From Candidatus Levyibacteriota bacterium (GTDB taxonomy: Bacteria > Patescibacteriota > Microgenomatia > Levybacterales > UBA12049), in assembly GCA_963716145.1 (NCBI GenBank), contig OY970292.1, positions 661,171 through 725,170 on the forward strand: a stretch of 64,000 bases of DNA, in the 5' to 3' direction. Within the stretch, counting starts at the first letter, position 1. Every line of letters begins with the position of its first letter. Below are positions 1 to 26,841 of this stretch, piece after piece. Made by a program: the position numbers and the translations under genes. The notes beneath the pieces were generated by a model. The model was given only the letters and a program-made list of their open reading frames with translations, had not been told where the DNA came from and ran no database searches.

Positions 1-2
1 AG

Positions 3-1880
3 GCTACAAGTCAGGCTCGAATTGGCTCTGTGACCATCGGAGCATTGGATGCAACAAATAACAGTCTCCTTGTACACGCAGACGGCGCAGGAGTAGGGAT
101 TATAAGAAATATAAAAATAAACGGAAGCCTTACCCTCTCAGGAGATAACGTAGACAACGGAGGATTGATAGTCCTATATGGACGGGCGGACACAGGCGGA
201 TCTGGTTTTAGCATGGCCGGAGGACAAGTAAATTCAGACATTGCCACCAGAAACTCAACTATTACAGGCGTTCACGCATACGCTAGCGCGGTTACCAATG
301 TAAATGGCGGTAACATTATATTCAATGGGGGTGCCAAGACATCGGGTAGTGGTGGGACAGATGGGAATGTTATTTTGGCTAACACCCGTGGCAACGTGGG
401 CATCGGCACCACAGCGCCTGATGTCTATTCTCTTGGTCTCACAAAACAAGTAACTATCTCAACCAACGGCGCGAGCGTCTCCTCAGCATCTATTGCAATT
501 GCGGGAGGAACTACCGGATCGGCACGTATTGATCTGGGTAATGAAAGTATTCTCAGAAGCGCTATACAAGGCATAAATGGATCCCATTTAACGCTTAGCA
601 CTAATGCTGCCAATTCAGGCACTACTCTGACAGAAAGATTGCGGATCCAATCAGACGGCAACGTGGGTATTGGGACAACTGCGCCTAGTACAAAATTTGA
701 AGTCGCAGGATACACTACCATCAGTGGGTCTGCATCTCATCTTGGATTTAATAACCCCACAACTCAACAAATATTTGGTCCTTATGGTTCAACTGCTGCT
801 GGGGGATATAGCTTTAATAACGATGCGGATACTGGATTCTCCAGATTTGCCGCGGATACCGTAGGGATAGTGACAGGAGGGTCAGAAAGACTCCGCGTTG
901 ACTCCACCGGCAACGTGGGGATCGGCACCTCTGCCCCTGGAAAAACCTTGGAAGTCGCAGGTAACAATACCACCAGCGCTTACACACCTCTCCGGTTAAG
1001 GAATACAAATGGAACAATAGGTGTGACCTGGGACTTTAACTTGGGTACCGACAAAGGACTAAATCTAAGTTCTAGTTCTGGAAATTCTTCTTTCTCGATT
1101 TCTCCGTCATCTGCAGCACTGAATGCTTTTTATATAAATAACGCTGGAAACGTGGGGATTGGGACAACAGGGCCGAATAATAATTTACATATAATCGGAG
1201 CAAGCAATACAAATTCTGGGATATTTGTAGAAGATGTCGCGGGGAGTAGGATATTAATATCTGGCTCACGGAGCACCACGGGCGTACCTTATATAGGAAC
1301 TTTTTCTTCAAGTACTCCACTTACACTTGGAACAAACGGAAACGAAACAATGCGTTTAACCACCGCTGGAAACGTGGGGATCGGGACGACTGCGCCAACC
1401 TTTAATCTGGATATCCAGAATGCAACCGGTACGACTCTACTTCGTGCCAAGAACACGGGAAGCAGCAATGCCGGTATCATCCTAGCATCTGACAATAACG
1501 GAGGATATATTACCAATAATGCCAGTCTTCTGACCAGTGAGGCAATCTACTTCCAGAACTCCACAAACTTAATGCGGCTGTATGCTGCAGGAGCTGAAAA
1601 AGCAAGACTGAGCAGTACTGGACTACAACTCTTTGGTACTGGCTCCGTTCTGGTAGTTGATGGTACCGGTAATAGCTCATTTGCTGGCAACGTGGGGATT
1701 GGGACGACCGCGCCGGGATCAAAATTTGAAATAAGCGGTAGTAACTCAGACCCATCAGGCGCATTGAGTAATGTAGGGGTAGTTCGGATAGGTACAGCCG
1801 CTACCAATGGTCTGGATATTGGCGCGAGTAGTTCGAGTCCATTTGGGGTCTGGCTTCCAGTCCAAAACAACCAGCATTAA
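3..1880 (+). CDS. Giant secreted repeat protein, N-terminal part (5' partial at window edge); six copies of a ~45-aa repeat carrying GNVGIGTT[AS]P
   Basis: Open frame runs from window start (no stop in frame before Met at 30). Repeated motif GNVGIGTTAP / GNVGIGTSAP / GNVGIGTTGP at regular spacing; Gly/Thr/Asn/Ser-rich composition typical of beta-helical fibre or adhesin repeats. Confidence 0.7.
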   Translation, partial: ATSQARIGSVTIGALDATNNSLLVHADGAGVGIIRNIKINGSLTLSGDNVDNGGLIVLYGRADTGGSGFSMAGGQVNSDIATRNSTITGVHAYASAVTNVNGGNIIFNGGAKTSGSGGTDGNVILANTRGNVGIGTTAPDVYSLGLTKQVTISTNGASVSSASIAIAGGTTGSARIDLGNESILRSAIQGINGSHLTLSTNAANSGTTLTERLRIQSDGNVGIGTTAPSTKFEVAGYTTISGSASHLGFNNPTTQQIFGPYGSTAAGGYSFNNDADTGFSRFAADTVGIVTGGSERLRVDSTGNVGIGTSAPGKTLEVAGNNTTSAYTPLRLRNTNGTIGVTWDFNLGTDKGLNLSSSSGNSSFSISPSSAALNAFYINNAGNVGIGTTGPNNNLHIIGASNTNSGIFVEDVAGSRILISGSRSTTGVPYIGTFSSSTPLTLGTNGNETMRLTTAGNVGIGTTAPTFNLDIQNATGTTLLRAKNTGSSNAGIILASDNNGGYITNNASLLTSEAIYFQNSTNLMRLYAAGAEKARLSSTGLQLFGTGSVLVVDGTGNSSFAGNVGIGTTAPGSKFEISGSNSDPSGALSNVGVVRIGTAATNGLDIGASSSSPFGVWLPVQNNQH

Positions 1881-3876
1881 TGCGAGCGCAGTATATCCTC
1901 TACTCCTAAACCCAGTCGGCGGCAACGTGGGCATCGGGACTACGAATCCTGGTACAACACTTGATATTGTCGGAACATTGAGAGTCTCAAGTTCTATAGT
2001 ACAAGGTGGAGCGGCAAATAATGGTATTGGAGAAGCCCAAATATCAGGCGTTCAACTCGCGCTATCTACAGCAGGTGCTGCGAGAAATGCACTCGCTCTC
2101 CGTGGATCCGCTTCTCAAACTGCGGATCTTCAGCAATGGCAGGACAGTGCGGGTGATATCGCGGCAAGCATGGGGCCAATCGCTGCCGGCAATCAGCGCC
2201 AACAATTTTTACTCTATAACACCCTTGAAACAACGCCTACCAATTATGAACGATTAGGTCTCTATGCTGACTCAACGAACAATATATTCAGAATTGATGC
2301 ACAAAATGGAGGAACGGGAACCCTTCGTAATTTAACCCTTCAAACAACCGGCGGCAATGTGGGGATTGGGACCACTGCGCCAACCTATAAATTATCTACC
2401 CTCAACTCTATTTCAACTGCCGGATCTGCTGTCTCTGCCATTACCAACACAAATACTACAGACAGTGCCAACACTGTAACTTTGAGGCTGAATACAGGTG
2501 CTACCTCCACCACAACTAATGCTCGTTTCATGACCTTCTATGCAGGCTGTACAACCGAAAACTGTGCAGGGACAGCGGTTGGAAATCTTCAGCTTAACAA
2601 CAATGCGGTACAACTAAATTCAGGAACCGCTGATTTTGCCGAGCGCTTCCCAGTAAGTGAATCAACAGAACCAGGAGACATCATAGGTATTGGTACCGCT
2701 GGTAACAGAAAAGCCCAAGCAGGAGATAGTTTGCTGGGAGTTGTCTCAGATACTGCCATAGTTGTAGGAAATTCTCCGGAAGGCGTTGATAAGTCAACTA
2801 ATCCTGTTGTCGGCCTTGTCGGTCAGGTCAAGACCAAAGTCTCAACAGTAAATGGTGAAATCAAAGCCGGTGATTTAATTACAGCAAGCGGCACACCGGG
2901 AGTTGGTATGAAAGCAACCCGCCCGGGAGCTATTATCGGTAAAGCGCTTGAATCATTCTCAAATGATGGAATCGGAAAAATACTAATCTACGTCAACTCC
3001 TCCTACGCTGATCCGCAAGGAGCTCTCGCTAATCTTTTCCTTGATGAAGGCGGAAACTTAGTTCTTCCAGCCAACACCAAAAGCGCAAACGCTGATCTGG
3101 GCCTGCCTCTTATTGCTTCTCCCGCAAATAATAATCCTGCCTCCCCCATCCTAAGTAAAACCGAAGGGTTTAATCCGGAGGAGTTTAATCAAAGAATTGC
3201 AACCAGTTCAGCGCACTTAGATGTCAGCAGTCAGTTGTCAGAAATCAGCAGCCAAACAGATAACCTTAATTCTAAAGTGGCTTCCGTAGAAGCTGAGCTT
3301 AAACTTTTAACTTTAAACTTTGGACTTTTAGCTAATCCTGCCTCCAGCTCTGCTCAATTAGGCTTAGACCCTGGCAACGCTACTTTCTCAGGAGATCTAA
3401 GTGTAGGAGGACGTACAACGCTTTCAGACGTTGGAATCACAGGAAAGATGAATATTGGCCTACTTGCAATTGAGGGACTATCAGAGAACGGTTTCGCGAC
3501 CATTAACACCACTTCTGGTCCTTTGAAAATCCAATCAGATGGACTCAACGGCATAGATATTCTTGATGGAAAGATTGTGATCGAACCCTCAGGCAACATG
3601 AAAGTTAATGGCGAGATTACTGTTAAGAAGGTAAATGTTGATACTGCTGAGGTAGCTTCAGCCTCGCTTGGTACAGCTATTCTTCCAACCGGCGAAAACC
3701 AAGTTGTAATTAATTCAACAGCTATAACTGATAAATCCAAAGTGTTTGTCACCTCAGAAACAGATATAGACTTACCGCTTAACGTAGTAAGTAAAACTGA
3801 TAAAAAATCCTTTACTGTAAAAATCAAGAACTCCCAGCAGGAAGATGTTAAGTTCAATTGGTGGATCGTTAATTAA
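1807..3876 (+). CDS. Giant repeat protein, C-terminal part (probably continuation of 3-1880 across a frameshift); carries a conserved ~150-aa domain (..FYAGCTTENCAGTA..ADFAERF..GDIIGIG..) and ends NWWIVN
   Basis: Overlaps the previous ORF by 74 nt in another frame and has no signal peptide of its own. Shares the GNVGIGTTxP repeat and a central domain with ORFs 9325-12009 and 17001-19646. Its C-terminus (NWWIVN) matches 9325-12009 (NWWIIN). Confidence 0.65.
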   Translation: MVWILARVVRVHLGSGFQSKTTSINASAVYPLLLNPVGGNVGIGTTNPGTTLDIVGTLRVSSSIVQGGAANNGIGEAQISGVQLALSTAGAARNALALRGSASQTADLQQWQDSAGDIAASMGPIAAGNQRQQFLLYNTLETTPTNYERLGLYADSTNNIFRIDAQNGGTGTLRNLTLQTTGGNVGIGTTAPTYKLSTLNSISTAGSAVSAITNTNTTDSANTVTLRLNTGATSTTTNARFMTFYAGCTTENCAGTAVGNLQLNNNAVQLNSGTADFAERFPVSESTEPGDIIGIGTAGNRKAQAGDSLLGVVSDTAIVVGNSPEGVDKSTNPVVGLVGQVKTKVSTVNGEIKAGDLITASGTPGVGMKATRPGAIIGKALESFSNDGIGKILIYVNSSYADPQGALANLFLDEGGNLVLPANTKSANADLGLPLIASPANNNPASPILSKTEGFNPEEFNQRIATSSAHLDVSSQLSEISSQTDNLNSKVASVEAELKLLTLNFGLLANPASSSAQLGLDPGNATFSGDLSVGGRTTLSDVGITGKMNIGLLAIEGLSENGFATINTTSGPLKIQSDGLNGIDILDGKIVIEPSGNMKVNGEITVKKVNVDTAEVASASLGTAILPTGENQVVINSTAITDKSKVFVTSETDIDLPLNVVSKTDKKSFTVKIKNSQQEDVKFNWWIVN

Positions 3877-7382: not shown

Positions 7383-9416
7383 ATGGATATCATAAATCAA
7401 TTTAAAAAAACATTATTAGAAAATGGAGACTCGGCCCGTCTCGCCGAAGATGGCGAATCGAGGCGGGCAAGCAAGGTTACTGTTAAGAACTATATTGCTG
7501 ATGTTAAGAGATTTGTATTCTGGTTTGAAAATAATTATAAACGGTCATTTCCTCCTCCTGCACTAACTCTGGAACTGGTTGAGACATATCTTACACCTCT
7601 TAGAGCAGCATCTCCCAGATCAGCAAAGCGCTATCAGTCCTCTTTAAGAAAGTTCTTCGGGTATCTAACTGCTGAAGGCAAGCTTTCATACAACCCTCTT
7701 GAGAACAGCAAAGTGAAGCAACTTAAAACCGACCCATTGTATCTAAAAGAGTTCGGTAACTATCTTTACTCCTCCAACGCAAGCCCTGTGACCATCAAAA
7801 ATTATATTCTTGACGTACGCCAATTTCTTAACTGGGCTAGCGAAGTGACAGAAGATAGTTATAAAAAGGTACAGCCAGAAGAGGGTTCGCCATCACTATT
7901 CGACAATTCACTTACCCCCGCAAAACAGCTTCAATTTAGCAATCAGGCCTATCCGTTTGCCAATATTGATACCTTTATACTTGATGAATATAAGAACCGC
8001 CTTGTCAATGAAACCCGGCTTTCCCCTCTGTCGGTCAACAGAAAGCTCTCCTCGCTTAGAAAATACATCTCGTGGGCAAGTGCTAAAGGAATTCTTAAAA
8101 ATGGGGCGAATGTAGGTTCCAGCATTTTAAACTCCGCAGATGAAAACCTGGCTAGTGCGCCTGATGCTGTTCAGGTCGGCTTGGATCCGAATGTCTTAAA
8201 AGAAATTCAAACCATTCCGGCAAAGCCGGAATCACCTCTTGAAGCTGAGTACTCAAGATTCGGTCCATTGAGACTGTTTCAGAAAAGTAAACGGGCCGTC
8301 AATTTTATGCTTGATAGCCTGATAATATTATCCATTTTAAAAACAATTGAGGCCACAAAGTATAATCTTTGGAAAGCAACCGGTAAAGAAATCTTTACTC
8401 CGCTTCCAAGCGTTATAAAGTCACTGGGTCATGCTGTTAATACAACTTCCGCTGGGATTTCCGGAATAGACCCGATTAAATCAACTTCCCTCACTGCGAT
8501 AGATAAATTTGTAACCGCTTCAAACGCAGCATGGGGCAAGGGTAAAATTCGCTCAATTCCCAAATCTATATATGCGCCTTTTAGGATCTCGACAGATGCT
8601 CTACCGTTTTGGAGGAAGATATTGTTTAATGTTAAATATAGACGACCTAAATGGTACAAAAAGTATCATTCATATTCATTTGTACACTATGTGCACTTTG
8701 CAATTGTTTTGATCTTTGCAACTTTTGCCGGATTTAGCATCTATCAAAGATTCGCAAGTCCTGCGCCTATTAAAAATGTTCTTGCCAGTAAAGTAGTATC
8801 ACCCGGCAGACTTCTTTCCTTTCAGGGACGTTTGAATGACTCACAGGACTCTCCTATAACCCGCGAAAGTATTATTAAGTTTGCAATATATAATAGCCAA
8901 ACAGCCTCAGGCTCCGCACTTCTTTGGCAGGAGATTCAAACTATTCAACCGGATGGCACAGGCGCCTTCTCAACTACCCTTGGTAAGGTAAATAAAATTG
9001 AGCAAGATATATTTAATGATAATCCCAATCTGTATCTGGGGATTAGCGTAGGATCAGATGCGGAACTTATCCCGCGTCAAGAGCTTGCAAATGTGGGTTT
9101 AACCAAAAATGCAGAAGAACTACAGGGCTTAAAACCTATTACGGTAAATAATGCGGGTGCAAGTAATGTTATCCTTGCACTTGATTCTTCGGGAAATCTG
9201 ACTATAGGGGGGTCTGCGACCCCAATATTTCAAGCAACCGGCGGTGAATTTAAGTTATCCGGCCAGCAGCTCACTCTTGCTACAAATCAAGGCTCAAATA
9301 CCAATATTGTGATTAATCCTGACGGTGCGGGAATTATTGATATTCAAAGACCACTGCAAAATACATCAAACAATAACAATCTACAATCAGCCTTGGGAAG
9401 CCGTGGAAGTGGATGA
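7383..9416 (+). CDS. Membrane protein with three N-terminal tyrosine-recombinase core-binding (SAM-like) domain repeats, a TM helix, and an extracellular region leading into GNVGIGTT-type repeats
   Basis: Repeat 1 (..KVTVKNYIADVKRFVFWFENN..LELVETYLTPL..SPRSAKRYQSSLRKFFGYLTAEGKLSYNPLE) has the classic integrase N-terminal domain pattern. Two further copies follow (PVTIKNYILDVRQFLNWA.. ; LSPLSVNRKLSSLRKYISWASAKGIL). No catalytic recombinase domain. TM = VHFAIVLIFATFAGFSIY. Confidence 0.6.
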   Translation: MDIINQFKKTLLENGDSARLAEDGESRRASKVTVKNYIADVKRFVFWFENNYKRSFPPPALTLELVETYLTPLRAASPRSAKRYQSSLRKFFGYLTAEGKLSYNPLENSKVKQLKTDPLYLKEFGNYLYSSNASPVTIKNYILDVRQFLNWASEVTEDSYKKVQPEEGSPSLFDNSLTPAKQLQFSNQAYPFANIDTFILDEYKNRLVNETRLSPLSVNRKLSSLRKYISWASAKGILKNGANVGSSILNSADENLASAPDAVQVGLDPNVLKEIQTIPAKPESPLEAEYSRFGPLRLFQKSKRAVNFMLDSLIILSILKTIEATKYNLWKATGKEIFTPLPSVIKSLGHAVNTTSAGISGIDPIKSTSLTAIDKFVTASNAAWGKGKIRSIPKSIYAPFRISTDALPFWRKILFNVKYRRPKWYKKYHSYSFVHYVHFAIVLIFATFAGFSIYQRFASPAPIKNVLASKVVSPGRLLSFQGRLNDSQDSPITRESIIKFAIYNSQTASGSALLWQEIQTIQPDGTGAFSTTLGKVNKIEQDIFNDNPNLYLGISVGSDAELIPRQELANVGLTKNAEELQGLKPITVNNAGASNVILALDSSGNLTIGGSATPIFQATGGEFKLSGQQLTLATNQGSNTNIVINPDGAGIIDIQRPLQNTSNNNNLQSALGSRGSG

Positions 9417-12009
9417 TAACCTTGCTATCCTTGCTAGCACAAGTGATCAATCGGCTCTTGTAATCAACCAAAACTCCACAGGTGATTTAATTAGCGCAAC
9501 TACTGGGCAAACTGCTAAATTCACTGTGAGTAACAGTGGCTCAGGCATCTTTGCCGGAGACCTTAGTATTCTCGGGAATAACTTATCAACCGTGACGGGC
9601 ACATTCAACCTTGCCAATACAAATACCACCACTCTTAACATAGGAGGTGCCGCAACTAATATTTCTATCGGTGCCGCAACCGGTACTACAACTGTCAATA
9701 ATAATCTGAAGGTCAATGGTCTTCTGAACCTACCAAGCATAGCAGTTGGTTCAGTACCATTTATTAATACCAGCAATCAATTGGCTCAGGACACTGCAAA
9801 CTTCTTCTGGGACCAGGGCAATAAACGCCTTGGCCTTGGGACTTCAACTCCAAGTTATAGATTGTCAGTTACTGATAACGTTTCTCAGGCTGGAAGAGCA
9901 ACTGCAGCTATCACAAATATCAATGCAACAGACAGTATAAATTCTGTTGCTTTAAGATTAAATATTGGAGCTCCAGCAGCAAGCACCCAGTCACGGTTTG
10001 CAACTTTTTATGCTAATTGTAGTAGCGAGGATTGTGCGGGAACCGCTAAGGGGAATATAGCAGTTACTACGACCGGAGTGGCCTACAATACAGGTAGTGC
10101 TGACTTTGCGGAATACTTCAGCGCTGATGATAACACAATTAATCAAGGCGATATTGTTGGCCTTGATTCGAACGGAAAAGTCGTTAAAGCAACATCAAAT
10201 ACTCCTCTTGTTGGCGTTCTATCAACAACGGCCGGTTTTGTTGGGAATGATACAAGTGATCGTGACTCCAATGCAAATAAAGTGCTTGTTGGCCTTATGG
10301 GGCAATTGCCGGTTAAAGTTTCAAATGAAAATGGGATAATAAAAGCCGGCGACCCGCTAACAGTATCATCGATCCCGGGGGTTGCCAGCAAAGCAGTGGG
10401 TGCAGGGCAAATTGTAGGCCGAGCTCTTGAAACCTTTGATCCTCTAGTTAATACATCCAATAAAATCAAAATAGCTCTTAATGTATCTTGGTACGATCCA
10501 AGAGCCATACTAATGAATGATGGAAGCCTGGCTACCGCATTTGAGACTAATAAGTCAAAGCCCTCGGAACTTAGCTTTGGGGATTACGAAAAGTACATGA
10601 TATCAATCCGGGATTTTGTTAACACTCTAAACACCGGAGTACTTGAGGTTGCTAATATATCCACCAATTCCCTATCTATTGCAACTGAGGATATAACAAT
10701 TGGAGGACAAACGCTTCGGAACTACATAGCATCCATTGTTAATGAGATACTGGACAAAAGACTTGCTGAAGAAAAACCAAAGAATATTGTTGTTTTAAGT
10801 CCATTGGCTCAAGCTCCAAGTTCTGCAACTGTAAGTGCAGATATGCAAACCGCGAATCCTCCAGCAGCTACTGCTGCTGCTTCACTAACTCCTACCCCCA
10901 CTAACCCAATTCCTAGTCCAACTGCCACTCAATCTGCTACTTACGTAACCAATATATATAACAATGTATCATCAACTAGCGCTGGGTTGGCATCAACCAG
11001 CGCTTCTCTAAGCCCGACACCGGAATTATCTATCTCCCCTACGCCTTCACCTGAAATTACAGCAAGTCCCTCAGCACAACCAACACCTATTGCTACAGAG
11101 TCTGCACAAATCCAGAACACTCAGACAACTCAGCAAAACAGTAAATCTGAAATTCAGGACATCAGAGAGTCTGAAATTACTGATACACTGAGTATTCCGA
11201 GTTTTCCGAACCTTCAAACTAATCATGCTAATATCGCAACTTTCTCCGCCGAACTCTCTTATATTCCCAATCTCAAATCAGACTATGCGACTTTTAATCA
11301 TGGATTAATCGCTCTTGGCCCAACCAGCCTTGCTGAAACATCAATTAGTACTCAGCTCTCGATTGGACAAAGTATGGTAATTACCGAAAATTCAATAAAC
11401 ACTCTTGGAACAGATCTTAATCTTCAACCTCTAAAGCAAGGAAATCTTTTGATAATGGGAGGACTTGTGGCAGTAGACACACAGGGCAATTTGAGTGTCA
11501 CCGGAAACGCGGCTTTTGCTAAAGATGTTACGGTAAAAGGCAAACTTGCAGCAGGCATTATCGTACCTGTTCCCGATCAGGATCTGATCTTTCAGCTTGG
11601 AGAAAATACACCAGGCAATAAGATAGAAGTCAAAAATGCTTCAGGCAGCGGAGTATTGAGTATAAATAAGTTTGGCGACATTATCTCTTCAGGAAGCGCG
11701 CAATTTTCAAATTTCAAAATCGTGAGAGGAGCCCAAGCAGACACTTCATTCACAGAGACAGTTGCGAAAGGCTCTGCCGGAACGGCCGTGATCACAGCCA
11801 ATGAAACCGAACGAACAATAGTCACACCTTTTGTTACAAAAGATTCATTAATATATATAACTCCTGTTTCATCAACTAGCGGGACAACTCCATATATCGC
11901 AAGACAAATAGAAGAAAGCTCCGAAACCGCAAGTAAAGGCTCTTTCACTATCCAAATCTCAAGTCCAGTCTCAAGTGACATTAAATTGAATTGGTGGATT
12001 ATAAACTAA
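9325..12009 (+). CDS. Giant repeat surface protein, C-terminal part (probable frameshift continuation of 7383-9416); carries the same conserved central domain and ends NWWIIN
   Basis: Overlaps the upstream ORF by 92 nt in another frame and lacks its own signal peptide. Contains ..FYANCSSEDCAGTA..ADFAEYF..GDIVGLD..VSWYDPR.. as in 1807-3876 and 17001-19646. Pro/Thr/Ser-rich linker (PTPTNPIPSPTATQS..). Confidence 0.65.
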   Translation: MRELLIFKDHCKIHQTITIYNQPWEAVEVDDNLAILASTSDQSALVINQNSTGDLISATTGQTAKFTVSNSGSGIFAGDLSILGNNLSTVTGTFNLANTNTTTLNIGGAATNISIGAATGTTTVNNNLKVNGLLNLPSIAVGSVPFINTSNQLAQDTANFFWDQGNKRLGLGTSTPSYRLSVTDNVSQAGRATAAITNINATDSINSVALRLNIGAPAASTQSRFATFYANCSSEDCAGTAKGNIAVTTTGVAYNTGSADFAEYFSADDNTINQGDIVGLDSNGKVVKATSNTPLVGVLSTTAGFVGNDTSDRDSNANKVLVGLMGQLPVKVSNENGIIKAGDPLTVSSIPGVASKAVGAGQIVGRALETFDPLVNTSNKIKIALNVSWYDPRAILMNDGSLATAFETNKSKPSELSFGDYEKYMISIRDFVNTLNTGVLEVANISTNSLSIATEDITIGGQTLRNYIASIVNEILDKRLAEEKPKNIVVLSPLAQAPSSATVSADMQTANPPAATAAASLTPTPTNPIPSPTATQSATYVTNIYNNVSSTSAGLASTSASLSPTPELSISPTPSPEITASPSAQPTPIATESAQIQNTQTTQQNSKSEIQDIRESEITDTLSIPSFPNLQTNHANIATFSAELSYIPNLKSDYATFNHGLIALGPTSLAETSISTQLSIGQSMVITENSINTLGTDLNLQPLKQGNLLIMGGLVAVDTQGNLSVTGNAAFAKDVTVKGKLAAGIIVPVPDQDLIFQLGENTPGNKIEVKNASGSGVLSINKFGDIISSGSAQFSNFKIVRGAQADTSFTETVAKGSAGTAVITANETERTIVTPFVTKDSLIYITPVSSTSGTTPYIARQIEESSETASKGSFTIQISSPVSSDIKLNWWIIN

Positions 12010-12544: not shown

Positions 12545-12556
12545 ATAAAATAATTT

Positions 12557-12823: not shown

Positions 12824-12929
12824 ACTAATCAGATTATCAGAAAATCAGAATTATGTCAATATCTTGATATAGTATTTTTGCTGTCTTGACAATATATATT
12901 TTGGTTTGATAACGTGGAAATATACCAAC

Positions 12930-12994: not shown

Positions 12995-13003
12995 GGAAAA
13001 ATC

Positions 13004-16018: not shown

Positions 16019-16684
16019 CTACTGGCTTGGAAGTGCCGTAGGAGCAGTTGTGGCCTCAGGAGCAGCAGTTGGTGCCTCCCCAGTTGGTCCGCTTGGTGTT
16101 GGACTTGGGCCAATATTGATCGGCGCTACATTGATAATCTTATTTTTGGATGGGCTGTAAAGAATTGCCTTTTTTGACTGGGTATAAATAAGTACCTTAT
16201 CGCCATTTACAGCTTTTGCGAAAAATGCCTGATTCTTGAGTTTGGCATTATCAGTGACAGTTGCAATTGTCGGGGTTTCGCTGGCAGGAAGATCAATTAG
16301 CTTCCCGACTTTATCAACAAGCTGTTTTATTTCAGTTTTGGATACTTCCTGAGGATTTTTGAAGTTTTTTAACTGCTCTTGTGACTGCCTATAAAGGAAA
16401 AAACTGTATGCAGATGCACCAATAGCAATAATCAATAAAATAATCACTATCCGCCCTCCTACACCCTTTAATTTGCCGGTCTTTTTATTGTTACCAACTG
16501 AGACTTCTTTGTCAACTATTTCTGTCATAATTTCAGATTTAGGAATACTTTCTTCAACCGGTTTAGAAAATGCGCTTTCTTTAACTCCTGCTTCGGACGC
16601 GTCTGACGTAGCTGGAGAATCTGTGAAAGTCTTCTCGGGGATTGATTTTTTTCCAAATTTTGCTGAGGGTGCTCGCTTTGCCAT
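16019..16684 (-). CDS. Single-pass membrane protein, hypothetical (low-complexity cytoplasmic N-terminus, TM, Pro/Thr-rich C-terminus)
   Basis: TM IVIILLIIAIGASAYSFFLY; no recognisable catalytic motifs. Confidence 0.45.
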   Translation of the reverse strand: MAKRAPSAKFGKKSIPEKTFTDSPATSDASEAGVKESAFSKPVEESIPKSEIMTEIVDKEVSVGNNKKTGKLKGVGGRIVIILLIIAIGASAYSFFLYRQSQEQLKNFKNPQEVSKTEIKQLVDKVGKLIDLPASETPTIATVTDNAKLKNQAFFAKAVNGDKVLIYTQSKKAILYSPSKNKIINVAPINIGPSPTPSGPTGEAPTAAPEATTAPTALPSQ

Positions 16685-17000
16685 AAAATCTCTCCTATAT
16701 TCAGGTTAGCTAATTAATAATCGAGTGTCAAGCTCTAGCAAGCTCAGCTATAACTTGTTTTTTATGCAAAGAACAAATACCGTGAGTATATTGCTGTCGT
16801 TTTTTTAAAGGTATACGAGCTTTTGATCCGCACCATGCGCAAACCCAGATAAGTTTTGTTAATTTATTTTGCATATTTGCTTTCATGTTTTTAATTTGGC
16901 TTTTGGCAAAATTAAATAACTACTTTGAATAGCAGCAAAACGTTATGTATATTTACTTTTATGCTCCGCCAAAGTTTCATACTTCTTACCTCCTTTCTCT

Positions 17001-19646
17001 TTAAGGTGTCGGGCTGGGCGATATTATCAACCCATCCCCCACTTGGATAGCAGTCCAGGAAAAATTCATATCGCTATCCGCATTCTTGTTAAGAACAATT
17101 GAAAAGCCTTTGCTGCTGCGCTTAGTCAGAATGAATTGAATATTTTTAGAAAAGAGATCTTTATCAAGTTTTTCCTCGCAAGCGCTTATTCCGGCAGATG
17201 CATTACAATCTCCATTACTTACCTGCTGATCAAACTCAGATTGATTTAACTTAACTCCGATAAGACTTGCATTGATAACCGGATCAAACTGATATTCTTT
17301 ACCAAACAGAACATCAACATGATCTCTATCCTTTTTGACAACTACATATCCGGCTGTATCCTTATTAAAAGTAGTAGTTCCTTCTATAACAACGTCTTTA
17401 TGGAAAGTAGCATTGTCTAGGAATTCGGCAAGCTTGGTAACTATCAAATTCTTGGTCATTACAGTATCAATAACATTTAGAATTCCCTCAACCAAACCAT
17501 TACCTTTGACACGAAGGTCAGCTGACACAGTCGCTGATCCATCAACCCTCAATCCTTCTAATACCATAAGCCCGGACGAGGAAGAAGTCGGGCTAGTACT
17601 TGATCCCAAGACAGATAGATTGGCAGAGTTTGATGCGTTAAGGTAAGGATCTGCTGCAAATATAATAAGACTTGCTTCAAGTGATGCAACTTTTGACTTA
17701 AGATCTGAAAACTGAGAGCTAATATCAGTTAACTTGCTATCTAATCCATCAACTTTTCCCGATACAGACACATGGGCTGAAGAACTGGAAACTTGTTGGC
17801 TAAAGCTAGCAGAATCAAATCCAACTAATCCGCTCAGGCCAGGTTGAGCAGAAGAGGTAGCTGAAGGAGTCGCATTTTCCAGCTTAGTTAAGCGTCTGAC
17901 TATGTCTCCAAGTGTCCAGGCGAGATCCTTTTTGGGAGCCGCAGGGGGAGTACCACCAAGAGCCACAACTTCAGCAGCAGGATCAGTGTTTGGCAGAACT
18001 AAGTTTCCGCTAGCATCAAGCGTAAGATTAGCCAGGAGATTGTTGGGGTCATACCAGATTGGATGCACTAAGACTTTTATAGTACCTATCCCTGAACCAT
18101 TATAAGCTTCAAGTGCCCGCCCGACTATCTCACCGGCTTGAGTAGTTTTTGCACCAACTCCGGGGATATCTGAAAGACTAATTGGGTCACCGGGTTGGAT
18201 CGAGCCATTCTGAGTAGATACTTTGGTTATAATCTGACCACTCAAACCAACAAGACTATTGGTTTGGGCGTAATCATTATCACAGTTGTTGTCATCTGTC
18301 TGGCAAAGCGGACCGTTACCGATAAATCCAGGATTTCTGGAAACAACCCCAACCAGAGCAGTTGAACCGGTTGCCCTGATCACAGAATTTGCATGTGTTG
18401 TATCAAGCATCACAATATCACCCTCAGCTGGTTTGGCGCTGGCATTTCCGTCGAGAAAATACTCGGCATAATCAGCAGCTGTTGTGGTATAGGCTACTGC
18501 ACTGGCGCCACCCTGGATTTTTCCGGCCACTGTGCCTGCTCCGGCAAAAGCGACAAAGTAGTTACCCGTAGTACGTGAAGTATTGGCTGTACCAATGTTA
18601 ATCAATAGACCATCAGAACTACTACCTGGTGCTCCGGCTGAGGTTGCTGTTGATAAGTTTTTGATCTGGGCGATGTAACCGGTACCATTGGTTCCCTGGA
18701 CATCTAGCAGGAAGCCTGGATTGGTCACGCCAATCCCCACATTGCCAGATGAGTTAATTATCAATCTTTCGGTGGCATCTAAAGCTGAGGCATTGGCTAT
18801 TACAAAATTACCGGTACTTCCGCGGTAGCCGATTGAATATCTTGCTGTACCGTTTTCACGGAAGTTAACAAAAGACTGGTCACCGCTGGCAGAATCAATC
18901 CGAACAGCAGCAGCAGCAGCACTTGATATATGAAGTTGCGCTCCTGGCGCTGTGGTCCCGATGCCCACGTTGCCACCTACATAGGCATCAGAGTTAACTC
19001 TCAAGTTGCCATAGACGCGGGCAGTACTTGCGCCGTCATCAAGAATATCAATAGAGCCAAGCCTAAATGAATTAACATGTGCAGTGCCATTAATCTCAAG
19101 TAGATATCCAGGATTGGTGAGACCGATGCCGACATTGCCGGCACTAGTTACACGTACCCGTTCTGTTGTTCCGCTGAAGATGCCAAGATCCATTGCTCCA
19201 CTGGTTGCCGGTGCAATTCCAGCCAGAGATATGGTAGAAGTAGCTGCTAAACTGTTGAATTTTAGTTGACCATAGCGAATGATCGAAACGTCATCAGTAT
19301 TATTGATACTAATTGTGGGTGCATTTCCAACAGTGCTGCCATTTGCTCCAGCAACAGCAAGTTTGTCTGTCGGACCCGTAGTGCCGATGCCCACGTTGCC
19401 GGATCCCAGAATTGTCATTGCATCTACAGGTGTACCTGCTGTTCTGAGGCGGAAGTTAATGCTTGTTGCCGCACTATCAAACCTGTTATCTATGAATGAT
19501 TGTCCGGTTGTGGTTTTATGCCATATATCAGTACCATTTGAAGCATCAGAACCGCTTCTAAGCAGAATGCCTGCGTCGCGTGAAGAAGATGAAGAATTAA
19601 TCTCGAGTATTCTACTCCCATTCGCGCTAACAAAGTTGTTTGGCAA
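17001..19646 (-). CDS. Giant repeat surface protein, C-terminal part (GNVGIGTTxP repeats plus the shared conserved domain ..ADYAEYF..GDIVMLD..VHPIWYDPNN..)
   Basis: Overlaps the 3' end of 19490-23635 by 157 nt in a different frame. The upstream ORF's last ~60 aa look like out-of-frame translation, so this is probably one gene broken by a frameshift. Confidence 0.6.
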   Translation of the reverse strand: MPNNFVSANGSRILEINSSSSSRDAGILLRSGSDASNGTDIWHKTTTGQSFIDNRFDSAATSINFRLRTAGTPVDAMTILGSGNVGIGTTGPTDKLAVAGANGSTVGNAPTISINNTDDVSIIRYGQLKFNSLAATSTISLAGIAPATSGAMDLGIFSGTTERVRVTSAGNVGIGLTNPGYLLEINGTAHVNSFRLGSIDILDDGASTARVYGNLRVNSDAYVGGNVGIGTTAPGAQLHISSAAAAAVRIDSASGDQSFVNFRENGTARYSIGYRGSTGNFVIANASALDATERLIINSSGNVGIGVTNPGFLLDVQGTNGTGYIAQIKNLSTATSAGAPGSSSDGLLINIGTANTSRTTGNYFVAFAGAGTVAGKIQGGASAVAYTTTAADYAEYFLDGNASAKPAEGDIVMLDTTHANSVIRATGSTALVGVVSRNPGFIGNGPLCQTDDNNCDNDYAQTNSLVGLSGQIITKVSTQNGSIQPGDPISLSDIPGVGAKTTQAGEIVGRALEAYNGSGIGTIKVLVHPIWYDPNNLLANLTLDASGNLVLPNTDPAAEVVALGGTPPAAPKKDLAWTLGDIVRRLTKLENATPSATSSAQPGLSGLVGFDSASFSQQVSSSSAHVSVSGKVDGLDSKLTDISSQFSDLKSKVASLEASLIIFAADPYLNASNSANLSVLGSSTSPTSSSSGLMVLEGLRVDGSATVSADLRVKGNGLVEGILNVIDTVMTKNLIVTKLAEFLDNATFHKDVVIEGTTTFNKDTAGYVVVKKDRDHVDVLFGKEYQFDPVINASLIGVKLNQSEFDQQVSNGDCNASAGISACEEKLDKDLFSKNIQFILTKRSSKGFSIVLNKNADSDMNFSWTAIQVGDGLIISPSPTP

Positions 19647-22600
19647 AGTCGCTCCAGGAGTGGTTGTGCTGATACCAACGTGGCCCCTTGGAAAATAGCT
19701 GCATAAGTAGTATCAGCCGTGTTGGCGGTAGTAGCGTCTACATATAGTCCGGTTACTGTGTTAGCCAGTGATCCTGCATCGGTGAATGAGATATGCTGAC
19801 CATAAAGAGTATTGGCATTGGTTGTTTGACTATTGGTAATTGCCAGTTTATTACCATAGTATGTTTGAGATGCTGCAGTACCGGCAATAGTATATGTTCC
19901 CAAAAGTCCATAGGCACCTGAAGTTGTGAGGTTATTTGTGCTCAAAGAGAGCCCACCGGTACTTGGAGTCTGAAGATCTGCAAACACACTGCCATCGGTC
20001 TGGGTCAAACGGAGTTGAGGATTTGAAGCATCCAGGACATCAAGCTTCCGGTCAGGCCCAGTGGTCCCGATGCCCACGTTGCCGTTTGAGAGTATGGTCA
20101 TTCTTGTATTAAATCCATCTGCTGCCCTGGTATTAAAAAGTAAATCTCCATAATTATTGGCTAGATCAATCATCTTACCTACGATGCTTGCCGCTGTAAC
20201 TCCAGCCTCCTGAAACCGCAAGCTGGCATATCCATTTGCCGATCCTGCTGCTTGATCAATCTCCAAAGCAGCTGTTGTAGATTCGCCAAGATTGGAAGTC
20301 GCTCCGGATGTATTAGTTGATCGGACCGCTGTAGTGCCTAAAGCATTGACTGTAAAGCGATTGGAGCTAGATTCCTGAAGAGTTATTAAATTAGAGCCTG
20401 TGCTTGATAACGTATTGGTTATATTAAGTTTTATGGCGGAAGGATTGGCTGAACTGACATTCCATGTTCCCGAAAGATCAAGTAGAGGCTGGGTATTTGC
20501 TGAGCCGGTTAAAGAGTAACCAGATACAGTGATTCCTGTTTGATTAGCAGTAGATTGGACCAAATGTAAAAGGCTGGTTGGATTAGTAATCCCAATCCCC
20601 ACGTTGCCCGCAGAGTTTATGCGCATACGCTCGTTGGTGTGGCCATTGGTAGCAAACATAATTGGTGCGTTCGCTCTTGTGATAATCCCAAGGCCTCCCG
20701 ATAAGCCGCTGTCTGCGGAAAGATACCCGGCATCCTGGACAAATACTCCGGTTGTGGTAAATCCTGTACCGAGTGCACCAATGCGAAGTGAGTCTGTTAC
20801 TGTAGTGCCATTTCTGACTTGAAAGACAGCTTGAGCACCTGTACCTGCACTTACATTTTCGATAACACCAGACGTAGCAGTATTCTGATCCAGCTTAACG
20901 TGGAGCAACTCGGCTGGCGCTGTTGTCCCAATACCCACATTACCTGAGGAGTTGATGCGCAGTGATTCCACTCCTCCGTTTGCAAACGCTATAGTTGACG
21001 CAGCTGGTCTCCACATACCGGTTGTAAGGTCCGAGGTCCAGGCATAGGAAGGAGCAGTTACCGTATCTGATGCTTGACCCAAGAATTGAGTATCAGTATC
21101 TATGCTTGTTGTTGCTTTAATGTTTCCTACAATATGAAGTTTATTTGTAGGGTTGGTGATGCCAATCCCCACGTTGCCATTAGCCAGGATAGTTAATTTC
21201 TCAGTAGGTGCGTTATCCGCAGTACCTGATCCTCCTGCTGTGGCTGTAAAGAAATGAAGAGCAGATGAGCCTGTGCCCGTGGAGGTACCTGATTTGAGGG
21301 TCAAATCTCCACCGGCCAGGTTGGCTGTACCTGCTATTGCTCCACCTGATGAGATGGTAAATCCCTGTCCTGCGGTAGCAGCAGTGGTATTCCTATCCAT
21401 ACCAAATGTTCTCGCTGCGGTACCGCCCAGAGCAAGTATCGAGCCTGGCGCAGTCGTCCCAATCCCCACGTTGCCATTAGCCAGAATCCTCATAACTTCA
21501 CTGTAGGCTCCTCCTGCAGCCCGGAGCTGAAATGCAAAATTGGAGTCTGCAGAGCCATTGGTCGGTTGAATCAGGTTGAGTACGCCTATCGCGTTATTAC
21601 TTCCGTTATCATTTGATGCCTGTAGCCGCAGACTACTAATAGCTCCGTTACTACCGCCATTGGCTTTGTTGTAAAAGAATGAGGTACCCGTTGTTATGGC
21701 AGTGGTACTATACGCAGTCGCGTCTGCGGTATCAATTTCCAATTTAGACGCCGGAGCCGTGGTCCCGATGCCCACATTACCTCCTTGGAAAAGGGCTGAG
21801 TAAAAGGTAGTATTGGCGAGTGTCCCGGGATCAGCGATATTAAGACCTACCCAGGTACATGCTCCCCCGGTACAGGCTGTTTTGGTAGGTATTGCAATAT
21901 TGAGGGCATTGATCGCTTTTGTGCCGGTTGCACCGGAGGTGCTTATAGTTGAGGCAATGTTAATACCATTTACTATGCTGTTTCCACTTGTATTTGAGGC
22001 GCCATCAATGACAGACAAATTAACAAGGCTTCCCGTATTACCTGCACCAGGATCATATGTTCCTGTATTTGCGATGTTTAATAAGCTGCCTGTTGTGATA
22101 CCTGTTTTGGTAGAGGTAATATTGACGGCTTTACCGCTTGTTAAGGCATTGGTTTCAATATTCAAGAAGTTGCCCGTGGTCAACGAAGTAGATTGCAGGT
22201 CCAAGACACCAAGCGTATTGGCTCCATTGCCGATCGTTGTTGCCGAATTGTTGGTGAGACTCAATGTCGCTGCAGTATTTGAGCTACCAATCAAATCCAA
22301 AAGCCCGCCGGGCGCAGTCGTGCCAATGCCTACGTTGCCAGAGAAATATTTATCACCTGCGCCCAGTGACTGATTGGCGAGACTGACAATACCAGGTACG
22401 GTTGCAGAAGCTACCTCCAGATTGCGGCTTGAGGATTCGGTAAATACTAGATCGCTCCAACGGACATTATTATCAGCGGCACCATGATAATTAACTAGAA
22501 ACAGTAATTTTACATACGCTGTACCATAAGAGAATAAGCTAGCTGTACCTACACCCGCAGTATCAAGACTACCAATATAACCTTCATAGCGAGTCCATGC

Positions 22601-23635
22601 ATTTGGCACCGTAGTATTCGCGGTCGTAATATATTTATAAGTACCACCCGACTGATTGTTCCTCACTGCTGTACCGGCAGCAATGGTAGGACCAGCCCAC
22701 GGAACACGCAACGTAATGACATTACCGCTAATGCCGGTAGTATCCCAAGCCCCAAGGCTGCCGTTACTGCTATAGTTACTCGAGTAAGTACGCGAATAAG
22801 TATAGTTTGGATAAGTATATCCTTTAGCATTTGTATACCCATACCAGATAAAATTACGAGTATGACCAGTACCACTGGTACTCCAGCCTGTTGCGTCTGT
22901 CAGGGTTATGGTGTTATCTCCAGGGTTGAGTTGAGCAGCCAGGGTTGTATCAGTTGAGCCGCTATACTTCAAATATGATTCTGGAGCAATTGAATTACCA
23001 TCAATATCATATTGTGCTACGCCAAGATATTGTTTGTTGGCTGCATTGAAGTTGGCCCCGCCGGTATCTCCAGACTTCCCCCAGCCAATCAAACGATAAT
23101 ACTTCTCAGGATCTACAGGTATGAGTTCATCGTTGAGTCTTGCTTGTTGACTAACATTGACCCGGAATGATCCTGCACCTCCATGTGTTTCCACAGAATC
23201 AAAGGTAAAGGTCGAGAAGTTATAGTTATTAAGAAGCAGTCCTGACCCGTTGGTAATAAGGTTTTCCGTACGGGACTGGACATAGTTGGTGGTCGCCAGT
23301 AGGTTAGTCCCCACGCCGGCCGCGCCGCCGGCAGTTGTAGTAGCCGCACCGGAAAAGTTGGCTGTACCGCTTACATCCAGTTTGTAGACCGGAGCAGTCG
23401 TCCCAATCCCCACATTCCCATTAGCCAAGACTGTAAGTGCCTCAACTCCTGCTGCTGAAACATGGAAAGGCTTGAGAGTTGAACTGGCTGCTGTTGTTAG
23501 ATTCAACAGATAGCCTGTTCCGCTGTTGGAAGCTGTGTCTGTCAGGTTAAATAGATTGGTTGTAGATGTAGCATTTCCGTAGGTAAAAGTTGTACTGAAG
23601 CTCGTTCCGACGCTTTGGTACATGTTGAAAGCCAA
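19490..23635 (-). CDS. Giant repeat protein (1381 aa), central part; >12 GNVGIGTT[AG]P / GNVGIGITNP repeats
   Basis: Highly regular ~45-aa repeat. No signal peptide; starts 18 nt after the stop of the signal-peptide-bearing ORF 23653-24798. Confidence 0.65.
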   Translation of the reverse strand: MAFNMYQSVGTSFSTTFTYGNATSTTNLFNLTDTASNSGTGYLLNLTTAASSTLKPFHVSAAGVEALTVLANGNVGIGTTAPVYKLDVSGTANFSGAATTTAGGAAGVGTNLLATTNYVQSRTENLITNGSGLLLNNYNFSTFTFDSVETHGGAGSFRVNVSQQARLNDELIPVDPEKYYRLIGWGKSGDTGGANFNAANKQYLGVAQYDIDGNSIAPESYLKYSGSTDTTLAAQLNPGDNTITLTDATGWSTSGTGHTRNFIWYGYTNAKGYTYPNYTYSRTYSSNYSSNGSLGAWDTTGISGNVITLRVPWAGPTIAAGTAVRNNQSGGTYKYITTANTTVPNAWTRYEGYIGSLDTAGVGTASLFSYGTAYVKLLFLVNYHGAADNNVRWSDLVFTESSSRNLEVASATVPGIVSLANQSLGAGDKYFSGNVGIGTTAPGGLLDLIGSSNTAATLSLTNNSATTIGNGANTLGVLDLQSTSLTTGNFLNIETNALTSGKAVNITSTKTGITTGSLLNIANTGTYDPGAGNTGSLVNLSVIDGASNTSGNSIVNGINIASTISTSGATGTKAINALNIAIPTKTACTGGACTWVGLNIADPGTLANTTFYSALFQGGNVGIGTTAPASKLEIDTADATAYSTTAITTGTSFFYNKANGGSNGAISSLRLQASNDNGSNNAIGVLNLIQPTNGSADSNFAFQLRAAGGAYSEVMRILANGNVGIGTTAPGSILALGGTAARTFGMDRNTTAATAGQGFTISSGGAIAGTANLAGGDLTLKSGTSTGTGSSALHFFTATAGGSGTADNAPTEKLTILANGNVGIGITNPTNKLHIVGNIKATTSIDTDTQFLGQASDTVTAPSYAWTSDLTTGMWRPAASTIAFANGGVESLRINSSGNVGIGTTAPAELLHVKLDQNTATSGVIENVSAGTGAQAVFQVRNGTTVTDSLRIGALGTGFTTTGVFVQDAGYLSADSGLSGGLGIITRANAPIMFATNGHTNERMRINSAGNVGIGITNPTSLLHLVQSTANQTGITVSGYSLTGSANTQPLLDLSGTWNVSSANPSAIKLNITNTLSSTGSNLITLQESSSNRFTVNALGTTAVRSTNTSGATSNLGESTTAALEIDQAAGSANGYASLRFQEAGVTAASIVGKMIDLANNYGDLLFNTRAADGFNTRMTILSNGNVGIGTTGPDRKLDVLDASNPQLRLTQTDGSVFADLQTPSTGGLSLSTNNLTTSGAYGLLGTYTIAGTAASQTYYGNKLAITNSQTTNANTLYGQHISFTDAGSLANTVTGLYVDATTANTADTTYAAIFQGATLVSAQPLLERLCQTTLLARMGVEYSRLILHLLHATQAFCLEAVLMLQMVLIYGIKPQPDNHS

Positions 23636-23652
23636 ATTCGCAGTTGGGGCAA

Positions 23653-24798
23653 TCAGCGATGACCAAGAACCCCACCACTAATACAACCTGAACACGATGC
23701 AACTGTCAGCGCACCTGCCTTTGACACCTTCCACGAACTTGCTGTTCCGACAATATCGTTTAAATTGCTACCAGAGGCGTTAGACAAGTTGAACTTAAGT
23801 CCGGTTTGATCCTGTACTCCTGTACCTGAAAGTGTAATCGATTGGCCGACAATCGCGCCCGTCAGAGCGGTTGAATCTGTAATTCCAAGTATGGTTCCAG
23901 TTGTTTGGGTTGAAGCCATAGTCTGTGCAACTGATGAGGTATTTGTCAGAAGGGTTCCGCCTGTTGGCAAGGTAACACTGGTAGTACCTGTTGTTGTCAA
24001 GGTCAAAGGATTGGTGCCTGATGTAGTGAATGCATCAGCAAATGAAACATTTTTGGCGGCAGTAAGCGTAAGCGTTTCCCCTCCCCCAAAGGTAATGACA
24101 TTATCAGCCAAGGTTGTTGAACCGTTTAAGGTCAGGGTTTTACCGTCAGTTCCGGTAATAGTCGCGCTGCTATTTGCTGTCAATGTTTTCCCGTTGGCAA
24201 TTGTCAAAGTGCCTGTTGTGTCAGTCACGGTTAAGCCATGAATCTTATCAGCATTAAAAGCATACGGAACAGCTGTGAATCTAACTCTTGGAGTCATTTC
24301 GCTAGCTTCCGTGCTTATCTTTATCCCCAGATACAAATTATCTGTATTGAAGTCAACACTTCCGGGAAGTGCGGTAACAGCACCTAAGGGCACTTGGAAA
24401 ATGCCGTCACCATTTGCTATGACCACAGAATCAGTTTCTGTCCAAATAGCTGTTCCTCCTGATGAAGCAGAGTAAAGAGAAAAAATAATCGAGTATGTTC
24501 CATTGGCGACATTAAGTCCGTTGGCATCAACAAGCTTTCCCTGAAAATTTATCTGCTTATTTATTCCAGCTGCTGCATTTGCGGGAGTAACTAAAAGCGA
24601 AAAGGTGATGACAGAAAATAAAAGCAATAATGCAATTGGCAAAAGGGGGCTGATGAAGTTTTTTGAAAAAAAATATTTAATCCCTATTTTTTTCTCTATC
24701 CGGATTGCAGGAATTATCCCGATCTTTAATCTTCTGGATTTTTGAGATTTGATTTCTTGTCCTGAGTTTTTCGAATGGATTGATATTTGATTTTTCAT
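23653..24798 (-). CDS. N-terminal, signal-anchor-bearing segment of the giant repeat protein (probably same gene as 19490-23635)
   Basis: N-terminal TM/signal ISPLLPIALLLLFSVITFSLLVTPANA; Thr/Gly-rich beta-strand repeats (TLTxxG...); ends 18 nt before the next ORF in another frame. Confidence 0.55.
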   Translation of the reverse strand: MKNQISIHSKNSGQEIKSQKSRRLKIGIIPAIRIEKKIGIKYFFSKNFISPLLPIALLLLFSVITFSLLVTPANAAAGINKQINFQGKLVDANGLNVANGTYSIIFSLYSASSGGTAIWTETDSVVIANGDGIFQVPLGAVTALPGSVDFNTDNLYLGIKISTEASEMTPRVRFTAVPYAFNADKIHGLTVTDTTGTLTIANGKTLTANSSATITGTDGKTLTLNGSTTLADNVITFGGGETLTLTAAKNVSFADAFTTSGTNPLTLTTTGTTSVTLPTGGTLLTNTSSVAQTMASTQTTGTILGITDSTALTGAIVGQSITLSGTGVQDQTGLKFNLSNASGSNLNDIVGTASSWKVSKAGALTVASCSGCISGGVLGHR

Positions 24799-26827: not shown

Positions 26828-26841
26828 AAATCAAAATAATT

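Follow-up and report, generated by a model that had tools for sequence, protein, structure and literature searches.

A 64,000-nucleotide stretch from the genome of a Candidatus Levyibacteriota bacterium (contig OY970292.1, positions 661,171 to 725,170; hereafter the window) carries near its start three loci, termed here A, B and C, at which long open reading frames (ORFs) encoding fibre-like proteins overlap or abut in different frames. The seven ORFs that a sequence-only reading of this DNA had grouped into one family were all recovered with the same coordinates and frames, and are listed below under working labels, A1/A2 and B1/B2 being pairs on the plus strand and C1/C2/C3 a triplet on the minus strand.

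3-1880, plus strand: ORF A1
1807-3876, plus strand: ORF A2
7383-9416, plus strand: ORF B1
9325-12009, plus strand: ORF B2
23653-24798, minus strand: ORF C1
19490-23635, minus strand: ORF C2
17001-19646, minus strand: ORF C3

The best explanation for this arrangement is that the window holds three single genes and not seven, each encoding a giant exported fibre protein of a Levybacteria-type bacterium of the candidate phyla radiation (CPR). Taken as a whole, namely three single fibre genes, frame breaks that are assembly errors, and a fibre fitted with a chaperone, we give this explanation a probability of roughly 0.7.

Three genes and four junctions

Translated in all frames, each junction shows an upstream and a downstream frame that share a few codons of overlap and carry on the same protein. 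Repairing a single base at each junction is enough to turn the pairs and the triplet into single ORFs, and for locus C the product agrees with the approximately 2,600 amino acids (aa) that had been predicted for 24798 to 17001.

1..3876, plus strand: locus A, 5′ end outside the window, at least 1,290 aa visible after removing one base
7383..12009, plus strand: locus B, 1,541 aa after removing one A; an uninterrupted ORF in Logan contig L001
17001..24798, minus strand: locus C, 2,599 aa after two one-base repairs

Independent contigs of the same strain were available from the Logan assembly of run ERR11593400, the comparison being one between two assemblies.

Window 1-2607: contig L003, 99.73% identity
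Window 8965-21683: contig L001, 99.96% identity
Window 23668-26946: contig L059, 100% identity
Window 26917-35070: contig L002, 99.99% identity

Three of the four junctions are covered by these contigs and are continuous there. At the A1/A2 junction both the Logan protein P0129 and contig L003 read PFGVWLQSKTTSINAS, and at the C2/C3 junction, which falls inside the repeat motif described below, the window's ...AIFQG is followed by HVGISTTTPGATL, where the longer run of L001 restores QGGHVGISTTTP.

1855..1856, plus strand: A1/A2 break, TT in the window and T in L003 (GGCTTCCAG against GGC-TCCAG)
9398..9399, plus strand: B1/B2 break, AA in the window and A in L001 (TTGGGAAGCC against TTGGG-AGCC)
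19684..19687, minus strand: C2/C3 break, C4 (plus strand) in the window and C5 in L001, restoring QGGHVGISTTTPGATL
23656..23677, minus strand: C1/C2 break zone, 22 nucleotides in which both frames are open, with the plus-strand runs A2 (23668-23669) and C4 (23670-23673)

The C1/C2 junction lies outside the Logan contigs. Relative to homologues this zone is one base short, and the protein is continuous across it in P0002 (81% identity locally), P0010, P0026 and P0033, at identities of 64-81%. Contig L059 terminates at exactly 23668, within the zone, which probably reflects the behaviour of a k-mer graph at an ambiguous run. One-base repairs, independent contigs and homologues all agree with the earlier proposal that each pair or triplet is one gene.

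Fibre architecture and its relatives

The motif G[NA]VG[IV][GS] occurs in 20 in-frame copies, none of them outside the seven ORFs in a six-frame scan of the whole window. Intact GNVGIGTT copies number eight at locus A (3-3876; motif scan, plus strand, starting at nucleotides 390, 657, 909, 1146, 1368, 1686, 1921 and 2353) and twelve at locus C (17001-24798), where the C2/C3 frame break disrupts a thirteenth. At locus B (7383-12009) the motif is missing, apart from a single degenerate NKRLGLGTSTP (NKRLGLGTSTPSYRL) at 9820-9870, before the domain shared by the three loci, so the description of three GNVGIGTT loci applies to A and C alone. Successive motifs in the window are spaced by 55-360 aa, mostly 74-112, and in 247 homologues by a median of 86 aa (interquartile range 74-106). 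This puts the repeat unit at about 75-110 aa, roughly double the 45 aa first suggested, and the estimate of some 7,000 repeat codons must likewise come down, as the seven ORFs sum to 5,519 and their non-repeat parts are large (N-domains, an inserted globular domain of about 290 aa, the chaperone module and the C-terminal extensions). The antisense motif GAVVP[IM]PT[LF]P, in 19 copies opposite GNVGIGTT copies, is indeed the reverse-complement reading of the repeat. Tandem Repeats Finder detected no DNA-level tandem repeat in the three loci, which indicates that the protein repeats are old and diverged.

The domains recognised outside the cytoplasmic part of locus B are as follows; PF11962 scores are to be compared with the Pfam gathering score of 25 bits.

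2632..3015, plus strand: locus A G2 domain, starting at the D of ADFAERF; PF11962 30.3 bits
3016..3873, plus strand: locus A C-terminal extension, a coiled-coil-like linker and a beta-rich end domain, ending NWWIVN
8799..9146, plus strand: locus B MAT-type N-domain; phmmer with the C1 N-domain E=1.5e-11, NF053851 E=0.0019
10102..10500, plus strand: locus B G2 domain, starting at the D of ADFAEYF; PF11962 38.6 bits; phrog_4775 pre-neck appendage
18045..18473, minus strand: locus C G2 domain, starting at the D of ADYAEYF; PF11962 23.6 bits, just under the cut-off
22415..23290, minus strand: locus C inserted globular domain, about 290 aa between fibre modules
24226..24573, minus strand: locus C MAT-type N-domain, beta-rich; NF053851 Bdello_MAT_N E=3e-8 (2e-9 for the domain alone)
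24574..24798, minus strand: locus C signal peptide (aa 1-75), hydrophobic core, predicted cleavage ...TPANA|AAG; sequence inspection

An export signal had been claimed for the 5′ ORF of every locus. This stands for B, by a transmembrane (TM) helix, and for C, by a signal peptide, whereas the 5′ end of A lies outside the window, and the A1 protein annotated in the source genome (P0130, 928 aa) has no signal peptide at its start. In homologues the N-domain begins 2-3 aa past the A-x-A site, and at locus C the predicted signal peptidase cut would fall at such a site. A beta-rich domain of about 120 aa stands straight after the signal peptide in 119 of the 247 homologues. The model NF053851 (Bdello_MAT_N) is matched by all 24 aligned N-domains, the best at 1.4e-10 and all below its curated cut-off of 60 bits. 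Our family profile matches the B1 N-domain at 5e-38, with B1 itself being a member of that alignment. An AlphaFold2 (AF2) model of the locus C N-domain is beta-rich with a pLDDT of 82. A profile search of PDB with the N-domain returned nothing significant, in agreement with the MAT paper, where the MAT N-domain has no PDB homologue (PMC10769870).

The MAT fibres of Bdellovibrio were described by Caulton et al. (2024) as a signal peptide, a conserved N-domain of about 130 aa and intertwined trimeric beta-helix modules with capping loops, followed by mosaic C-terminal ends that carry the S74 chaperone or adhesin tips (PMC10769870). A profile made from the last stalk module and the shared domain matches the Bd2133 crystal sequence 8OND at E=8e-17 in three stretches, the alignments being centred on the motif GN[VL]G[IL]GT..P...L, and it also matches four more Bdellovibrio fibre entries (8OML, 8OJN, 8ON4 and 8OL4). 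In length, the Bd2133 helix modules (G683-E813 and N814-A907) come close to the motif spacing of 75-110 aa found here. The repeats are also matched by PHROG tail-fibre families (1e-15 to 1e-28), and together with Bd2133 and the phi29 gp12 matches given below this bears out the phage tail-fibre or beta-helix affinity that had been predicted. In the AF2 monomer model the stalk part has a pLDDT of 50-68, as expected for an obligate trimer.

The window proteins resemble Bd2133, Bd3182 and other MAT fibres in having an export signal directly followed by a conserved beta-rich domain, probably of the MAT N-domain type, beta-helix modules that open with a GN[VL]G[IL]G...P...L loop, a mosaic C-terminal end, several paralogues per genome, and a producer that lives by attachment to other cells. 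They differ in belonging to a CPR/Levybacteria cell without an outer membrane, in a size of up to 2,599 aa (up to 6,844 aa in relatives), in an N-domain too diverged for the NCBIfam cut-off and, at locus B, in a stalk of non-GNVGIGTT type and a cytoplasmic N-terminal extension. They differ also in their end: neither PF13884 (S74) nor a known adhesin tip was found in the three window genes, which have a Peptidase_G2-type chaperone and a further 290-500 aa instead. The inserted domain of locus C has no family match in Pfam. It is present in homologue P0004 as well (59% identity), where it adjoins the S74 end, and could serve in receptor binding as a module exchanged among fibres.

The shared domain of about 150 aa, present as described in 1807-3876, 9325-12009 and 17001-19646, is the Pfam family Peptidase_G2 (PF11962), an intramolecular-chaperone autoproteolytic cleavage domain. 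The match is partial, covering profile positions of about 30-105 of 228. D95 and E98, three residues later, of the motif A-D-[FY]-A-E are invariant in 26 of 26 aligned sequences, and the corresponding D/E pair is said to be catalytic in gp12 of phage phi29. An AF2 model of the domain reaches a pLDDT above 90 for residues 95-240, and its top Foldseek matches in PDB are 3SUC (E=3e-5) and 3GQH (E=6e-5; TM 0.56 on the target). The latter is the C-terminal fragment of gp12, which is matched by the same profile; its chain begins DFAEYFE, with the D aligned to D95. The chain is 163 aa long, which fits a full-length gp12 of 854 aa. Mature gp12* ends at residue 691 (PMC6542822), and this end together with the start of the 3GQH chain makes the aligned D a mark of the cleavage position. 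By this alignment, the window proteins probably cleave themselves just before the invariant D.

With gp12 (pre-neck appendage or tailspike; 3GQH, 3SUC) the window proteins share the PF11962, phrog_4775 and fold matches of this domain, the alignment of the DFAEYF start of the released fragment with their own A-D-[FY]-A-E, and the position of the domain on the C-terminal side of a beta-helical fibre, trimeric in gp12 and presumably so here. Unlike gp12, which ends with the chaperone and folds in the cytoplasm, the window proteins continue beyond it and are predicted to be exported. Many homologues (P0004, P0013, P0017, P0086, P0144 and others) have Peptidase_S74 at the equivalent place, which supports the idea of a swappable slot for trimerisation chaperones. 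S74 (PF13884; endosialidases, phage tail fibres) is likewise a C-terminal, self-removing trimerisation chaperone and the one used by Bdellovibrio MATs (PMC10769870), but it is absent from the three window genes and has an unrelated fold and catalytic motif (SDxxxK).

The extension after the G2 domain spans 290-500 aa in the window proteins and is partly related between loci A, B and C; two of the proteins end in NWWI[VI]N as had been noticed, one as NWWIVN and the other as NWWIIN. Among the best 147 representatives of the G2-type domain, 137 have 100-600 residues after it, and 66 also carry the MAT-type N-domain. The extension may help further with trimerisation and then be discarded or, if there is no cleavage, form the distal tip of the fibre.

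From these parts we propose the following working model, in which the chain runs from an export signal through the MAT-type N-domain, a long stalk and a gp12-type chaperone to the extension. Locus C would be exported by its cleavable signal peptide and locus B by an uncleaved TM helix behind a cytoplasmic domain. The N-domain would hold the fibre on the surface of the producer, a task that the TM helix would perform in B. The stalk of A and C would consist of modules of about 75-110 aa, each opening with a GNVGIGTTxPxxxL loop and homologous to the trimeric beta-helix modules of Bd2133. Once three chains are exported, the C-terminal chaperone would nucleate and check folding of the trimer and then probably cut itself off just before the invariant D, leaving a long trimeric fibre that the epibiotic cell could use for host contact. 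By analogy with MAT fibres and phage tailspikes, the window proteins are probably host-attachment fibres.

Attachment to other microbes is the way of life of CPR bacteria, but little is understood of their host recognition. The genes described here indicate that a Levybacteria genome encodes several giant fibres in which prey-recognition MAT modules of Bdellovibrio type are combined with a self-removing chaperone of phi29 type. Counting the G2-type domain alone, 10,439 cluster representatives are reached at E<=1e-3, in proteins of up to 6,844 aa, which points to a very large and essentially unstudied family of candidate host-attachment organelles. The names that relatives bear at NCBI are 'tail fiber domain-containing' or 'beta strand repeat-containing' protein. 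As kinds, the G2 chaperone and the fibres of MATs and of phage tails are already known. In the searchable literature we found nothing that links MAT fibres or Peptidase_G2 to CPR/Patescibacteria and nothing on the GNVGIGT motif, and no mention of CPR was found in the main text and supplements of the MAT paper, including part of its Table S3 (PMC10769870). What appears to be undescribed in that literature is the joining of an N-domain and stalk of MAT type to a G2 chaperone and an extension, the abundance and size of these proteins in CPR, and the locus B subclass.

Origin of the frame breaks

Over the 23.5 kb compared, the two assemblies differ by seven one-base indels and six substitutions, and all of the indels lie in runs of two to five identical bases. 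Three of the seven break ORFs of the window; the other four break Logan ORFs. A scan of the window for overlapping same-strand frames added a break in a family-2 glycosyltransferase (GT2) gene, which is split as ORFs 41695-42192 and 42122-42478.

327: G5/G4, Logan-private frame-breaking indel, window intact
2172: G4/G3, Logan-private frame-breaking indel, window intact
18957: C3/C4, Logan-private frame-breaking indel, window intact
About 29185: 5/4 run, Logan-private frame-breaking indel in L002, breaking the WxLIP-like non-fibre ORF 29040-29981
42076-42078, plus strand: fifth window break, GGG for GG in ATCGGGTACC, splitting the GT2 gene 41695-42478

After deleting one G from that run, the GT2 protein matches PF00535 over positions 1-163 of 168 (E=2e-27). 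Frame breaks affect about one gene per 13 kb of the window, and only two of the seven indel sites lie within the repeat motif. Because breaks are found in both assemblies and in both directions, in short runs and in unrelated genes too, with indels outnumbering substitutions, we consider it likely that the four breaks in the fibre genes are one-base run-length errors of assembly and not biology; long-read homopolymer miscalls are the most likely kind. Of the three explanations that the sequence-only reading had offered, namely assembly indels, pseudogenisation and regulated frameshifting or phase variation, the data favour the first, as the breaks are not shared by both assemblies and non-fibre genes are affected.

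Several points weigh against our explanation. Six of the seven indels and four of the five window breaks sit in fibre genes, an excess that is marginal when normalised to G/C runs (P of about 0.05-0.07) and reaches P=0.017 by length. Four transitions in locus A imply that the assemblies are not purely error-separated copies and that there is some true strain variation; there may be real population heterogeneity at the break sites too, the comparison being one of assemblies, and a nanopore origin of the source data is presumed. As regards the fibre model, the C1 MAT N-domain scores 33.5 bits against the NCBIfam curated cut-off of 60, and trimerisation, surface display, autocleavage and host binding are proposals made from sequence. 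Processing of gp12 is reportedly ATP-dependent, and ATP would not be available outside the cell. It is also odd that a long conserved extension without a counterpart in gp12 should follow the chaperone, only to be discarded if cleavage occurs.

An alternative that we regard as unlikely takes the breaks as real mutations, the fibre genes being pseudogenes, or alleles that decay or vary, in some members of the population and the two assemblies sampling different strains. It gains from the six substitutions, four of them the locus A transitions just mentioned, from the marginal enrichment of indels in fibre genes, and from MAT knockouts, which show that redundant multi-copy adhesin families can do without one of their members (PMC10769870). 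However, an indel-to-substitution ratio above one, with every indel breaking a frame in a short homopolymer, is unlike strain divergence, and each assembly breaks genes that are intact in the other, including the GT2 and WxLIP-like genes; moreover, past each break the frame stays fully open for another 690-1,380 codons, which would hardly be so in old pseudogenes. Far less probable is a functional role, in which slipped-strand phase variation or programmed ribosomal frameshifting would toggle the surface fibres. The breaks do fall within homopolymers, the two assemblies of one strain disagree about their state, contig L059 stops exactly at the C1/C2 site, and surface adhesins are the classic substrate of contingency loci, where a gene for a surface protein is put in or out of frame by the number of bases in a mononucleotide run. 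The tracts of known contingency loci have some 7 nucleotides or more, whereas those found here are only T2, A2, C4 and A2/C4 (2-5 nucleotides); the sites are not conserved, close and distant homologues being continuous at the junction positions, and non-surface genes of housekeeping type are equally hit by the same type of indel, with private breaks in both assemblies. Programmed frameshifting in particular was rejected, since the junctions share no slippery heptamer and the required shifts are mixed in sign, +1 at A and B and -1 at both C sites.

That the ORFs are separate genes as drawn, with signal-bearing and signal-less partners assembling after translation, is hardly credible. The annotation of the source genome does list the split ORFs separately (P0001, P0124, P0125, P0128 and P0130), but the breaks fall within domains and within the repeat motif (QGG|HVGISTT), the downstream starts are mechanically assigned TTG or GTG codons or an ATG inside the motif (MGIGTT), and homologues are as a rule intact single chains of 1,000-6,800 aa. 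Separate promoters for the downstream ORFs, which the earlier reading had named as part of what would count against single genes, were rejected as well: on the coding strand near 23640-23800 and 19650-19800, upstream of the internal ORF starts of locus C, no promoter-like site was found, and the only one found at this locus lies upstream of 24798. An alternative genetic code was rejected because the ORFs are out of frame rather than broken by in-frame stops. With single genes and assembly errors as the preferred explanation, the split-ORF pattern should not be taken for a case of frameshifting or phase variation, and other split genes of this genome are equally suspect.

A side observation concerns the tetranucleotide GTAC, which has 166 sites in the 64 kb. 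Two Logan contigs end one base before it (2607/2608 and 21683/21684), for which the chance is about 1e-4, and the GT2 break (42076-42081) abuts GGTACC. The coincidence may come from a methylated motif that causes basecalling errors, or from variation at a restriction-modification site.

The cytoplasmic part of locus B and the genomic surroundings

Ahead of its MAT-type N-domain, locus B has a further part that is unlike those of the other loci.

7467..8105, plus strand: locus B N-terminal part, predicted to be cytoplasmic, with two SAM-like (core-binding) domains of tyrosine-recombinase type; matches to PF02899, PF13495 and PF13102 only
8673..8744, plus strand: locus B TM helix, aa 431-454, after the basic RRPKWYKKYH; crude hydrophobicity scan

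The topology is predicted to be N-in/C-out. NCBI names the homologues 'site-specific integrase, partial', but we rejected a tyrosine recombinase as the identity of ORF 7383-9416: only the SAM-like N-terminal domains match, no catalytic domain (Phage_integrase, R-H-R-Y) was found in it, XerC/XerD models reach 45-57 bits where about 330 are required, and a TM helix and the MAT N-domain follow. The order of two SAM-like domains, about 190 aa, TM helix, MAT N-domain and fibre is kept in 28 proteins (P0248-P0274 and window 7383-8744), all of them from CPR; every sufficiently long one has the TM helix and then the MAT N-domain, and none has the catalytic domain. Other fibre homologues have MerR/HTH_17 in the same place (P0024, P0136 and P0145). 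A speculative and on balance doubtful interpretation of this class is that one polypeptide, in which a single TM helix connects the fibre with about 430 residues in the cytoplasm, would link host contact outside the cell to DNA binding inside. If true, proteins of the locus B class would act as a regulator, or a device for handling DNA, that is tethered to the membrane and driven by a phage-like fibre.

A second membrane-tethered protein with DNA-binding domains lies beside a fibre gene, at 3990-5756 on the minus strand next to locus A. Its layout is like that of locus B, with two transposase-type helix-turn-helix domains (HTH_28/HTH_23/HTH_Tnp_1), a TM segment and a beta-rich extracellular part of about 280 aa.

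Further functions of the cell surface and of DNA transfer are encoded near the fibre loci, between 31279 and 38484.

31279-32415: LysM and M23 peptidase
34497-34895: small gene resembling a type IV secretion system pilin
35190-36062: DUF11 surface protein
36175-38484: TrwB/VirD4-like coupling ATPase

The RadA protein has 83% identity to that of a Candidatus Levyibacteriota metagenome-assembled genome and 56-65% to many others. The contig to which the window belongs measures 1,142,061 bp; the first 52 nucleotides of the window have no match among the GTDB species representatives, and exact look-ups of the proteins 1807-3876, 3990-5756, 26842-27813, P0001 and P0130 gave no match either. At 39400-41400 lies an island of about 2 kb with a GC content of about 0.58-0.65, compared with about 40% for the genome, which has overlapping ORFs in six frames without a Pfam match, one of them looking like a Pro/Ala-rich membrane protein from an organism of high GC content; the island may stem from foreign DNA or from a chimeric assembly. 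The tRNA-Ala gene at 59786-59860 has no 16S gene beside it in the window. Introns and other insertions in rRNA genes are common in CPR, and the 23S rRNA gene at 56227-59503 (minus strand), with 3,277 nucleotides against a model of 2,925 positions, contains an insertion of about 350 nucleotides.

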